A stretch of 64,000 nt of DNA, from the NCBI GenBank assembly GCA_036270875.1, contig DATBBR010000051.1, forward strand, positions 8,582 to 72,581. The letters run 5' to 3'. This document shows, in pieces, positions 2 to 18,911 of the stretch (its first letter is position 1; every line of letters begins with the position of its first letter). This DNA is from Acidimicrobiales bacterium (lineage in GTDB: Bacteria > Actinomycetota > Acidimicrobiia > Acidimicrobiales > AC-9). The notes below the pieces were generated by a model, which was not told the origin of the DNA, ran no database searches, and saw only the letters and a program-made list of their open reading frames with translations. The position numbers were made by a program, and so were the translations under genes.

Positions 2-985
2 GTGAGCCACCGCCTCATCACCGATCGAGACCACACGGTGGCCCCAGTGATCCTGGTCGACGGGCACAGGGCCGTCGCCTCCGTCCCCGTACGACCGGGC
101 GACCGGATCGAGCTCCGGCAGGGGTCGGCCGTCGAGCCGACGGTGGTCCGCCTGGTGAAGCTCGATCCAGGTGCGGCGAGCTCCCCCGGAGCCGCCGGCG
201 CTGCCGGCAGCTCCGGCACGGGCCAGCCCGGCCTCGTCGCCACTGCGCCGATGGGCGACGTCCGCGCCGGGTTGCCCGACGTTGAGCGCACGCTATGGCA
301 CCCGGGCTCGGCGGCGTCGCTGGCCGAGCGGGTAGGCGAGCTCAGCGGCGAGGTCGTTGCCACGTCACCGGTGGCCTCCGCCTCGCCCGTCCAGCCCGAG
401 GCCGATCGCGTCGTGGCTCTCACGTTCGACGATGGGCCGGACCCGACCTGGACGCCAGAGGTGCTCCGTATCCTGGGCGCCGAGCGCGTCCCGGCCACGT
501 TCTGCGACATCGGCCGCTGGGCCTGGGCCCATCCGGAGCTCGTCCGAGCCGAGGTGGCGCAGGGGGAGACCGTCTGCGACCACACGGTCGACCACGACAC
601 CACACTCAACTACGCGTCCCACGCCCGAGTGGCGTTTGAGGTCGGACGGGGAGCGGACCTGATCGAGGCCGCCGCCGGCGTGCGACCCCGCTTCTATCGG
701 CCGCCGGCCGGCGTCCTCTCGCCCGACGTGATCGCGACCGCCCACGCTCGAGGGCTGCGCGTGCTCACCTGGTCGATCGATCCGAGCGACTACCTGGTAC
801 CGCCGCCTGATGTCCTGCTGTCGCGCATCCTCTCCCAGGTGCGCCCCGGCGCCGTGATCCTGCTCCACGACGGCGGGGGGTTCCGGGGCAACACCGTTGG
901 CATGCTCGCCCAGCTCATCGACACGCTGAGGGCCGAGGGCTACCGCTTTACGACGCCGGCCCAGGAGGTACCGGCCGCGTCGTAG
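2..985 (+). CDS. Polysaccharide deacetylase (NodB homology, CE4), possibly 5'-truncated by the window edge
   Basis: CE4 motifs TFDDGP, HTVDH, RPPAG, WSIDPSDY and LLHDG in the translated ORF; the N-terminal half is a low-complexity linker and the true start may lie upstream of base 1. Confidence 0.85.
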   Translation: MSHRLITDRDHTVAPVILVDGHRAVASVPVRPGDRIELRQGSAVEPTVVRLVKLDPGAASSPGAAGAAGSSGTGQPGLVATAPMGDVRAGLPDVERTLWHPGSAASLAERVGELSGEVVATSPVASASPVQPEADRVVALTFDDGPDPTWTPEVLRILGAERVPATFCDIGRWAWAHPELVRAEVAQGETVCDHTVDHDTTLNYASHARVAFEVGRGADLIEAAAGVRPRFYRPPAGVLSPDVIATAHARGLRVLTWSIDPSDYLVPPPDVLLSRILSQVRPGAVILLHDGGGFRGNTVGMLAQLIDTLRAEGYRFTTPAQEVPAAS

Positions 986-1466
986 GGGAGACGTCGACCT
1001 GGCACGTCTCGTCGATGCCGAGGACGCGCAGCAGACGGCCGAGCCCGAGAAAGGTGGCCACACAGATCGTGAGGTCGAGGATCTCGGCGTCGGTGAAGCT
1101 CTCCCGCAGCCGGATGAAGAAGTCATCATCGATCCGGGTGTGGTCGAGCACGAACCGCTCGGCGTACTCGATAGCCAGCCGCTCCTGTTCCGAGTAGTCG
1201 GCCGTGCGGTACTCGGCGACGTGACGGTAGAATTCCTCGGTGAGTCCCTGCTGCGTCACCGACGCAGCCCGAAAGCTCAGTCAGATGGGACAGTCGTTGA
1301 GCTGGGCGATGCGCATCCGCGCCGCCTCCCGGACGCGGACCGGCAGAATGCTCTTGTTGTAGGCGGCATCGCTCAACCGGGCCACAGCCCCGCCCATCTC
1401 CGGTCGCAGCGACCAGACCTGGACGGCGTCGCCGCCCTCACCCTCGGGAATGTCGATGCGAGCCAT
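948..1466 (-). CDS. AhpD/carboxymuconolactone decarboxylase-family protein with in-frame UGA (probable selenocysteine, CxxU), 172 aa
   Basis: ATG at 1466 gives MARIDIPEG...REAARMRIAQLNDCPI, then TGA (1283-1281), then in the same frame LSFRAASVTQQGLTEEFY...ERLAIEYAERF...EILDLTIC to the stop at 948. The two ORF-track fragments are in frame and together form one CMD/AhpD-like protein; a SECIS-like hairpin follows the UGA. Confidence 0.8.
1241..1279 (-). promoter_or_regulatory. Bacterial SECIS-like stem-loop
   Basis: After the UGA the mRNA reads C UGAG C UUUC GG GCUGCGUC GGU GACGCAGC A GGGA CUCA: perfect 8-bp upper stem, GGU apical loop starting 20 nt after the UGA, 2x1 internal loop and a lower stem. 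Confidence 0.75.
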
Positions 1467-1471
1467 TCGTT

Positions 1472-2695
1472 TCAGCCGACCGAGGCGGGGCTTGCCGAGA
1501 AGGCGACGGGCATGTGCTTGATCCCGTTGATGAAGTTCGAGCGCAGGCGCCCGACCGGTCCCGCCAGCTCCATGTCGGGCAGGCGACGGAGCACCTCGTC
1601 GAAGATGACCCGGATCTCGAGCCGGGCGAGGTTGGCGCCGAGGCAGAAGTGGGGACCCCCGCCTCCGAAGGAGATGTGCTCGTTGGGGGAGCGCCCGACG
1701 TCGAAGCGGAACGGGTCGGGGAACACGGTGTCGTCCCGGTTGGCAGAGATGTACCAGATCACGACCTTCTGGCCCTCGGCGACGGGCTGGCCGAGGATCT
1801 CGATGTCGCGCTGGGCCGTCCGGCGGAAATGCATGACCGGCGTCCCCCACCGCAGCATCTCCTCGATGGCACTCGGCAGGAGGGACGGATCCTTCAGCAG
1901 GCGTGCCCGCTCGTCGGGATGCTCGATGAGGGCGAGCATCCCGTGGGCGATGAGGTTGCGGGTGGTCTCGTTGCCGGCCACCGCCAAGAGCAGGAAGAAG
2001 AGGTCGAACTCGAGCTCGCTGAGCTTCTCCCCGTTCACCTCGGACCCGAGCAGGACGCTGATGATGTCGTCCCTCGGCGAGGACCGCTTCTGGGCCGCCA
2101 GCTCGTGGGCGTAGGCGTAGAGCTCGGTCGACGCCTCCATCGCGCCTTCCTCGGTGGTCTGGTACTCCGGGTCCTCGGAGCCGATCATCCGGTTGCTCCA
2201 GTCGAACACGAGGTGGCGGTCCTCCTGGGGGACGCCCATGATCTCGGCGATCACCTGGAGGGGCAGCTCGGCTGCGATGTCGGTGACGAAGTCGCACTCG
2301 CCCTTGGCAGCCACGGCGTCGACGATCTCCCCCGCCAGCACCCGGACCCGATCCTCGAGGCGGCCAACCATCCTCGGGGTGAACCCCTTGTTCACGAGGA
2401 GCCGGTAGCGGGTGTGCATGGGCGGGTCCATGTTGAGCATCATCATGCGCTGCTGGGCCAGCATCTCCTCGTCCTGGTCCATGAGCAGCGCGCTGCCCCG
2501 GTTGGAAGAGTAGGTCTCCCAGTCGCGGTTGATGGCCACCACGTCCTCGTAGCGGGTGACGGCCCAGAAGCCCGAGCCGTCGGGCTCGTCCTGCCAGCAG
2601 ATCGGCGCCTTGGATCGCAGGGTCGTCAGCATGTCGTGGGGCACGCCGCGGACGAAGACGTCCTTGTCGGCCAGGTCCACGTCAGAGATCTCCAC
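1472..2695 (-). CDS. Cytochrome P450 (CYP124/CYP125-like lipid or sterol omega-oxidase)
   Basis: I-helix AVAGNETT, EEMLR (ExxR) and heme motif FGGGGPHFCLG; GAGGAGG SD upstream of GTG 2695. Subfamily is inferred from overall resemblance. Confidence 0.9.
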   Translation of the reverse strand: MEISDVDLADKDVFVRGVPHDMLTTLRSKAPICWQDEPDGSGFWAVTRYEDVVAINRDWETYSSNRGSALLMDQDEEMLAQQRMMMLNMDPPMHTRYRLLVNKGFTPRMVGRLEDRVRVLAGEIVDAVAAKGECDFVTDIAAELPLQVIAEIMGVPQEDRHLVFDWSNRMIGSEDPEYQTTEEGAMEASTELYAYAHELAAQKRSSPRDDIISVLLGSEVNGEKLSELEFDLFFLLLAVAGNETTRNLIAHGMLALIEHPDERARLLKDPSLLPSAIEEMLRWGTPVMHFRRTAQRDIEILGQPVAEGQKVVIWYISANRDDTVFPDPFRFDVGRSPNEHISFGGGGPHFCLGANLARLEIRVIFDEVLRRLPDMELAGPVGRLRSNFINGIKHMPVAFSASPASVG

Positions 2696-18200: not shown

Positions 18201-18911
18201 TCATGCCACCTCCCCGAAGTAGGCGCCGGAGACGGCGTCGGTCACATCCGCCGGCTCCCCGACACGGGTGATCCGCCCCTGGGCCATCACGGCGGCGAAG
18301 TCGGCCACCGCCATGGCGGTACGGGCGAACTGCTCGACCAGCAGGATGGCGATCCCGTCGGCCGCCAGCTGACCGACCAGGTCGTACAGCTCGGCCACGA
18401 TGCGCGGCGCCAGGCCCATCGAGATCTCGTCCAGCAGCAGGAGTGCGGGGTCGGTCGTGACCGCCCGGGCCATGGCCAGCATCTGCTGCTCACCTCCCGA
18501 CAGCGTGCCTGCCAGCTGGTGACGGCGTTCCCCGAGGCGGGGAAAGCGTGAGAAGGCCCGCTCCTCGACGTCCTTGGGCCGCAGGTCGTTGCGGAACGTC
18601 ATCATCCGCAGGTTCTCGGTCACGGTGAGGTTGGCGAACACGCCGCGGCCCTCGGGGATGGTGCACACGCCATGGCGGGCGAGGGCCTCCGGCGACGCCC
18701 CGTTCACGTGCACCCCGGCGATGTGCACGCAGCCCGCGGTGGGCTCCATCTGGCAGCCCGCCACCTTGAGGAGGGTGGTCTTGCCTGCGCCGTTGGGCCC
18801 GAGGAGGGCGAACACCGACGAGCGAGGGACCACGACGTCCACGCCGTGCACGACCTCGATGCGGCCGTAGGCGGCTCGGATATCGCGCAGCTCGAGGGCG
18901 GGGGCCGTCAT
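18201..18911 (-). CDS. ABC transporter ATP-binding subunit, LivF-like
   Basis: Walker A GPNGAGKT, signature LSGGEQQ, Walker B LLLLDE; ATG 18911 overlaps the upstream stop. Confidence 0.92.
   Translation of the reverse strand: MTAPALELRDIRAAYGRIEVVHGVDVVVPRSSVFALLGPNGAGKTTLLKVAGCQMEPTAGCVHIAGVHVNGASPEALARHGVCTIPEGRGVFANLTVTENLRMMTFRNDLRPKDVEERAFSRFPRLGERRHQLAGTLSGGEQQMLAMARAVTTDPALLLLDEISMGLAPRIVAELYDLVGQLAADGIAILLVEQFARTAMAVADFAAVMAQGRITRVGEPADVTDAVSGAYFGEVA

Follow-up and report, generated by a model that had tools for sequence, protein, structure and literature searches.

The stretch of 64,000 nucleotides analysed here (the window; contig DATBBR010000051.1 of the Acidimicrobiales assembly GCA_036270875.1) raises the question whether a minus-strand reading frame running from position 1466 to 948 and interrupted by one TGA represents a broken gene, a pair of small genes or a single gene in which UGA is decoded as selenocysteine (Sec). 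The last of these had been proposed in an earlier note on this DNA: a selenoprotein of 172 amino acids, split by a single in-frame TGA at the second cysteine position of an AhpD-type CxxC motif and prone to be missed by gene callers. The frame, the position of the TGA in the motif and the neglect by gene callers were all verified, and comparison with relatives supports the proposal as a whole. The locus is almost certainly an intact Sec-decoding gene for a 172-residue thiol-selenol oxidoreductase of the AhpD/CMD fold. This assignment is based on the single frame, the Sec/Cys pair in the predicted redox motif, a complete Sec insertion machinery in the same genome, a covarying hairpin confined to those family members that carry the TGA (Sec forms, as opposed to Cys forms with a cysteine codon in its place) and the AhpD fold. 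The gene and its central codon are as follows.

948..1466, minus strand: complete coding sequence, which with TGA translated as U gives the AhpD-like/CMD-fold selenoprotein of 172 residues; start codon ATG at 1466, stop codon TAA at 950-948, Sec as residue 62.

1281..1283, minus strand: codon 62 (UGA), decoded as the Sec in second place of the redox motif C59-P-I-U62; every one of 29 homologues has Cys in this column.

The frame holds 172 sense codons and a lone in-frame TGA (1283-1281, codon 62), around which residues 57-66 read N-D-C-P-I-U-L-S-F-R. Mechanical calling of open reading frames yields two pieces instead, one that stops at 1281 and one of 103 amino acids that spans 1259..948 and begins with GTG at 1259. 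The same division is found in public collections, including NCBI nr for the source contig (78 kb), where an N-terminal piece of 61 and a C-terminal piece of 103 amino acids are stored as separate proteins. The N-terminal piece falls into a cluster of 28 members at 90% identity, drawn from dozens of contigs, and all members listed are exactly 61 residues long. The subfamily is covered by no curated NCBIfam model. Since the halves are stored apart and no model cut-off is reached, it is accurate to call the gene hidden.

When UGA is translated as U, a Pfam CMD domain (PF02627) is recognized at residues 22-102 with 27.3 bits (cut-off 23), while the match obtained in a six-frame search of the genome is interrupted by the TGA and scores 22 bits. 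A search of 5.8 billion proteins returned 2250 relatives. The best 120 of them are about 160 amino acids long, share 72-80% identity with the window's protein and are named AhpD-family alkylhydroperoxidases by their sources; those with an organism label come from metagenome-assembled genomes (MAGs) of Acidimicrobiales. In an alignment with 29 full-length homologues (all Acidimicrobiales, 73-81% identity) the column of U62 is occupied by Cys throughout, and Cys59, Glu47 and Arg66 are invariant. A family profile matched the solved structures of Pseudomonas aeruginosa PA0269/AhpD and Agrobacterium Atu0492 with E = 6e-10. The AlphaFold2 model (predicted local distance difference test score 78, predicted template modelling score 0.72) has continuous helices and agrees with the AhpD-fold structures 7xw1, 2ijc and 2gmy at template modelling scores of 0.73-0.81 (target-normalised); the top 36 fold matches in the PDB are all AhpD/CMD-fold proteins, each with probability 1.00. 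The residues of the predicted active site, besides U62, are encoded as follows.

1290..1292, minus strand: Cys59 codon TGT, first residue of CxxU, an invariant column.

1326..1328, minus strand: Glu47 codon, 12 residues ahead of Cys59 (the Glu-x11-Cys spacing of AhpD), invariant and aligned with the Glu of PA0269.

1269..1271, minus strand: Arg66 codon CGG, four residues past Sec, at the position of the catalytic His of canonical AhpD (CxxCxxxH); family-invariant and placed by profile alignment to PA0269.

In its Glu-x11-CxxC portion the site thus agrees with that of AhpD. At the position of the canonical histidine, Sec and Cys forms alike have an invariant arginine, and the profile alignment sets NGCAYCVNMH of PA0269 opposite NDCPVCLAFR. 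An invariant D108-H109 pair occurs elsewhere in the protein and might supply the missing histidine in three dimensions. The 13-residue C-terminal tail, SPTTRPVPPGPAS, is modelled with low confidence, is missing from most relatives and varies within the genus.

If UGA62 is to be read as Sec, a selenocysteine insertion sequence (SECIS) is expected in the mRNA. Two structures were predicted directly after the codon.

1250..1268, minus strand: conserved SECIS core, in which 1268-1261 and 1257-1250 form a stem of 8 bp and 1260-1258 the apical GGU loop, from folding and covariation.

1241..1279, minus strand: lower stem (1279-1271 with 1248-1241) and 2x1 internal loop, a folding prediction for this sequence.

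The earlier note had drawn the same fold, namely a lower stem, a 2x1 internal loop, a perfect 8-bp GC stem and a GGU loop starting 20 nt after the UGA. All of it was reproduced except for the description of the stem as GC: its arms, GCUGCGUC and GACGCAGC, pair over 8 bp with no mismatch through six G-C and two U-A pairs. The core begins 12 nt and its loop 20 nt past the UGA. The lower stem and the internal loop are probably not part of the functional element, because the pairing is broken in many cells across 12 relatives (alignment columns 17-25 with 48-55) and is thus not conserved. The 19-nt hairpin alone has a folding energy of −12.6 kcal/mol (z = −3.85), reached by none of 200 shuffled sequences, and the first 12 Sec forms comprise eight different hairpins, all with energies between −8.3 and −14.1 kcal/mol (z from −3.2 to −3.9). 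Published constraints for bacterial SECIS elements (bSECIS), those of bSECISearch, comprise a loop of 3-9 nt with a G in its first two positions, an upper stem of 4-16 bp, a distance of 16-37 nt between UGA and loop and a minimum free energy of at most −7.5 kcal/mol (PMC13188914). The window's hairpin lies within every one of these limits, with its 3-nt GGU loop, 8-bp stem, distance of 20 nt and −12.6 kcal/mol. A scan of positions 900-1600 against Rfam at a permissive threshold gave chance snoRNA matches only, none of them on the hairpin.

Fold and hairpin bear on the possibility that UGA62 mostly terminates translation, so that a 61-residue peptide is made and the piece of 103 residues beginning at GTG 1259 is produced separately or not at all. 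The public annotation treats the gene in just this way, with both pieces listed as proteins, and some truncated product is to be expected, since Sec insertion in bacteria competes with termination. The listed pieces, however, come from automatic gene calling. The TGA falls within the CMD domain and within the AhpD fold, the helices of the model run on without a break and neither half would amount to a complete fold. Furthermore, GTG 1259 lies inside the conserved hairpin and reads TTG, GCG or GTT in the closest Sec relatives outside the genus. Two products in place of one are accordingly very improbable, and a single 172-residue selenoprotein is the reading followed here.

The genome is equipped to make such a protein. 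In the source assembly (2.99 Mb, 97% complete) all four components that the earlier note had suggested looking for are present: a tRNA-Sec scoring 67.9 bits against a cut-off of 47 and classified by ARAGORN as SeC, anticodon UCA; selA (402 bits) and an adjoining selB (255 bits), both above cut-off and on the same contig as the tRNA gene; and selD (333 bits, above cut-off). A second selenoprotein gene was noticed, encoding FdhA, a molybdopterin oxidoreductase (outside the window, on contig C132:17782-19155, TGA at 18382), which runs off the contig end. Its Sec site is that of a classical formate dehydrogenase (QARI-UGA-HSATVPG), and a 7-bp hairpin, GGUCCCC-GGUCU-GGGGACC, follows 11 nt past the UGA. 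The Sec machinery therefore serves at least one other client, with the same SECIS layout. Among relatives, selA occurs in 10 of the 11 other genomes with a Sec form, the lone exception being 59% complete, and in 7 of 16 genomes with a Cys form. Three further genomes of the same genus (G001, with a partial match only, G005 and G007) have selA, and a copy of the selenoprotein gene was not found in them; with two of these genomes only 83% and 68% complete, the gene may nonetheless be present.

Relatives were collected in several steps. A six-frame search of 60 related genomes gave the first set, in which the same in-frame TGA recurs wherever a genome of the window's genus has the gene (four genomes) and in four genomes from other families at 39-65% identity. 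Named genome contigs added 71 Cys forms and 3 Sec forms from MAGs that are without exception Acidimicrobiales or Acidimicrobiaceae and in many cases labelled as soil or peat. A census of 401 species genomes of the order, in which every match flagged with an internal TGA was fetched, found 148 family members in 125 genomes. About 60 of these members are Sec forms, distributed over some 50 genomes as orthologues and paralogues with 38-94% protein identity. Several genomes carry two Sec paralogues, namely G195 (L126/L127), G158 (L132/L163), G075 (L142/L162) and G334 (L145/L146) as well as G215, G169, G366, G294 and G226. In the TGA-bearing relatives the downstream frames are intact and the C-terminal residues conserved, and the column of UGA62 is Cys in a total of 96 Cys forms. 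Positions 1281-1283 show no variant in the Logan contigs that cover them, which come from three soil metagenomes, each of a different study, with strain differences visible nearby, so that the TGA, for which the earlier note had advised a look at the reads, recurs in independent assemblies.

The hairpin follows this division. In a combined set of 92 sequences (12 Sec forms and 80 Cys forms), in which seven positions of the core stem were scored, all seven are paired in 12 of 12 Sec forms and between none and four in the 80 Cys forms. Some of the latter are hairpin-poor despite a near-identical peptide (AASVKEQ versus AASVTQQ). Cys-containing relatives with the same hairpin, which the earlier note had named as the sign of an incidental structure, were thus not encountered in this set. 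Covariation was assessed on a gapless alignment of 56 distinct Sec-form sequences over the 8-bp stem. Here 93% of cells are paired, as compared with 21-60% in slid registers, and double-sided changes affect six of the eight pairs (53 cells; G-C to A-U 25 times and C-G to U-A 8 times, for example); the values for pairing and double-sided changes were reached by none of 500 shuffles. Every Sec form carries the hairpin in the same register. This includes a divergent subfamily with the motif NGCPV-U-LEWR (L175, L180, L183), in which the stem is wholly different in sequence (CUUCCGC/GCGGAAG). The loops of the Sec forms are GGU, GUU, GGC, GGG or GGA, or consist of five nucleotides with G in second place, which agrees with the bSECIS limits given above. 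The Sec/Cys alternation at an otherwise invariant Cys column and the compensatory changes in the stem are what the earlier note had looked to homologues for, and on the question of chance this comparative evidence is decisive.

It is against this background that the TGA would have to be explained as a nonsense mutation of a cysteine codon (TGC or TGT) in a decaying AhpD-like gene, with an incidental hairpin. Only one base separates TGC from TGA, cysteine stands at this position in all of the closest full-length database homologues (the 29 mentioned above), and the longer region past the UGA does not fold significantly better than its shuffles. The same TGA in about 60 genes, intact frames downstream of it, dN/dS values below 1 past the TGA, a covarying hairpin restricted to Sec forms and, apart from the one genome of 59% completeness, the confinement of Sec forms to genomes with selA all speak against decay. 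Conservation effectively refutes the pseudogene, whose probability we regard as negligible. Equally remote is the idea that UGA is read as Trp by a reassigned code or as Cys by a mis-acylated tRNA-Sec or near-cognate read-through: although the bacterial Sec machinery can place other residues at UGA when selenium is limiting, TGA is an ordinary stop in this genome, as at the end of the P450 gene five bases upstream (1474-1472), the column is an invariant Cys and not Trp, and a dedicated SECIS is present together with the full set of selA, selB, selD and tRNA-Sec.

Some points weigh against an intact Sec-decoding gene of AhpD type and have to be set beside this evidence. The source organism is an uncultured soil MAG. 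The ratio of nonsynonymous to synonymous substitution (dN/dS) is higher past the TGA than ahead of it; within the genus it amounts to 0.13-0.62 downstream, and the C-terminal half is therefore under purifying selection, if weaker than that on the N-terminal half. The fold of the 66-nt region after the UGA cannot be told from those of its G+C-rich shuffles (z = −0.93); the case is therefore built on the 19-nt core and the comparison with relatives. None of the NCBIfam selenoprotein cut-offs is reached (34.2 versus 81.8 bits for TIGR01926, 60.7 versus 310 for NF053654 and 20 versus 110 for NF041047), and the same holds for six divergent Sec members. The best NCBIfam matches are a model for a YciW-related (seleno)protein and TIGR01926, both far below cut-off, and membership in NF053654, NF041047 and TIGR01926 was ruled out on the basis of these scores. 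Finally, the histidine of canonical AhpD is replaced by arginine, so that the chemistry may differ from that of Mycobacterium tuberculosis AhpD.

In a maximum-likelihood tree the Sec forms make up a basal grade, 73 Cys forms fall into one nested clade (support of 94 in the Shimodaira-Hasegawa-like approximate likelihood ratio test, SH-aLRT) and at least three changes of state are implied. Sec is apparently the older state, later replaced by Cys in one large clade together with loss of the hairpin. The direction of this change is inferred, given the long deep branches and the arbitrary root.

Based on what is established for bacterial Sec biology, the gene would work as follows. A ribosome arriving at UGA62 would encounter, 12 nt downstream, a hairpin with a stem of 7-8 bp and an apical loop of the type G-G/U-N. 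This hairpin would bind SelB-GTP loaded with Sec-tRNA-Sec, which SelA and SelD would generate from the genome's own tRNA-Sec(UCA), and SelB would deliver the charged tRNA in place of release factor action. The resulting protein would have the site E47-x11-C59-P-I-U62-x3-R66, in which Sec replaces the second, nucleophilic cysteine of the AhpD CxxC motif. By position Sec62 corresponds to Cys133 of M. tuberculosis AhpD, which we take to be the nucleophile. From what is known of AhpD, Sec62 would then be the attacking residue and cycle with Cys59, the presumed resolving thiol, via a selenenylsulfide. The oxidised substrate reduced in this way might be a peroxide, a partner of the peroxiredoxin type or some other compound.

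Does the neighbourhood of the gene point to a substrate? The final 38 nt of the selenoprotein gene (948-985) are shared with the 3' end of a polysaccharide deacetylase gene (2..985, plus strand) that converges on it. Upstream, the following gene is encountered.

1472..2695, minus strand: cytochrome P450 gene (Pfam p450, 95 bits), TGA stop at 1474-1472, kept in three of four same-genus relatives.

The P450 stop lies 5 nt ahead of the selenoprotein ATG, and the two genes therefore probably share a transcript. It is this P450 gene, and neither ahpC nor a gene of a lipoamide system, that adjoins the selenoprotein gene. A directly adjoining P450 gene on the same strand is found at 13 of 56 Sec loci and at none of 96 Cys loci. 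In the window's genus the P450 gene precedes the selenoprotein gene, and in other lineages it follows it; upstream and downstream P450s share 26-33% identity, and the downstream ones form groups that are about 29-36% identical. P450-adjacent loci include, besides the window (1472-2695, minus strand), L028:272-1393, L031:217-1440, L134, L135, L137, L144, L148, L166 and L172. To our knowledge, a P450-linked selenoenzyme pairing has not been described. The Sec forms of this Arg-type AhpD-fold family could be dedicated partners of cytochromes P450; the selenoprotein might scavenge peroxide that escapes when P450 turnover is uncoupled, or exchange reducing equivalents with the P450. At present such a partnership seems rather unlikely, and the link is a lead only, because the loci are phylogenetically non-independent and most Sec loci lack a P450. 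As a general partner of the family P450 was ruled out, given its presence at 13 of 56 Sec loci and at no Cys locus, while other neighbours vary. The latter comprise a nitroreductase, a short-chain dehydrogenase/reductase, an enoyl-CoA hydratase and an FAD oxidase, as well as a glutathione peroxidase. The glutathione peroxidase is found at L027:1013-1501 (plus strand), in a Sec-form relative with 65% identity, where a Cys-type gene (NVASQCGLT; Pfam GSHPx, 134 bits) stands ahead of the Sec gene and overlaps its start. This arrangement suggests a peroxide-related operon and fits a role in peroxide metabolism.

The consequences reach beyond the single gene. A whole subfamily, present in about one in eight of the sampled Acidimicrobiales species and in some of them in two copies, is stored in halves in public databases, and selenium use is thus undercounted in a common group of soil actinobacteria. 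The family offers a large and clean natural series of Sec/Cys alternation. Its compact SECIS consensus (12-nt spacer, stem of 7-8 bp, G-G/U-N triloop) could seed a curated model or recoding experiments in hosts of high G+C content. The site with Arg in place of His and the recurrent P450 neighbour are leads, not yet findings.

How, then, does the protein relate to known systems? With M. tuberculosis AhpD (1knc, 1gu9), a characterised alkylhydroperoxidase that re-reduces AhpC, it shares the core helical fold and a CxxC-type site preceded by Glu. The two are only remotely similar (Foldseek E = 0.14 or worse, 8-12% identity), and His137 of that enzyme is Arg here. PA0269 (7xw1, 2ijc, 2o4d) and Atu0492 (2gmy) are closer, being the best matches by profile and fold, of the same one-domain size class and with the same Glu-x11-CxxC placement; they differ in having Cys instead of Sec and the canonical CxxCxxxH instead of CxxU/CxxxR, and identity is about 25%. 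The hairpin resembles the SECIS of E. coli fdhF and the bSECIS consensus in forming a stem-loop directly 3' of the UGA, within the coding sequence, with a spacer of 11-13 nt and a small loop starting with G-G/U. Unlike the fdhF element, which contains a bulged U, the hairpin of this family has no such bulge, and most members carry a bare triloop of GGU, GUU, GGC or GGG above a closing C-G pair.

The closest parallel is provided by selenoproteins from metagenomes. The Sargasso Sea yielded CxxU selenoproteins of both the AhpD-like type (COG2128/TIGR01926) and the CMD type (PF02627) in 2005 (PMC1088965); these ranked with the most abundant selenoprotein families of the Global Ocean Sampling data in 2008 (PMC2398784) and are listed in current reviews (2026 review, PMC13188914) and in a 2026 database (PMC13188914, PMC13326102). 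The protein described here shares with them the Pfam CMD fold, a CxxU motif whose second redox residue is Sec, widespread Cys homologues, an intragenic SECIS just past the UGA and a presumed redox role. It differs in its origin from soil Acidimicrobiales (Actinomycetota), in the Arg that stands for His four residues past the second Cys and in scores far below the cut-offs of TIGR01926, NF053654 and NF041047. The minor new points are this Arg at the place of the catalytic His of AhpD, the apparently ancestral state of Sec and the occurrence of P450 genes beside Sec forms only. Because selenoproteins of this kind have been described since 2005, the gene is a member of a known group, the AhpD-like/CMD-like CxxU selenoproteins, within which it represents a sizeable actinobacterial subfamily.

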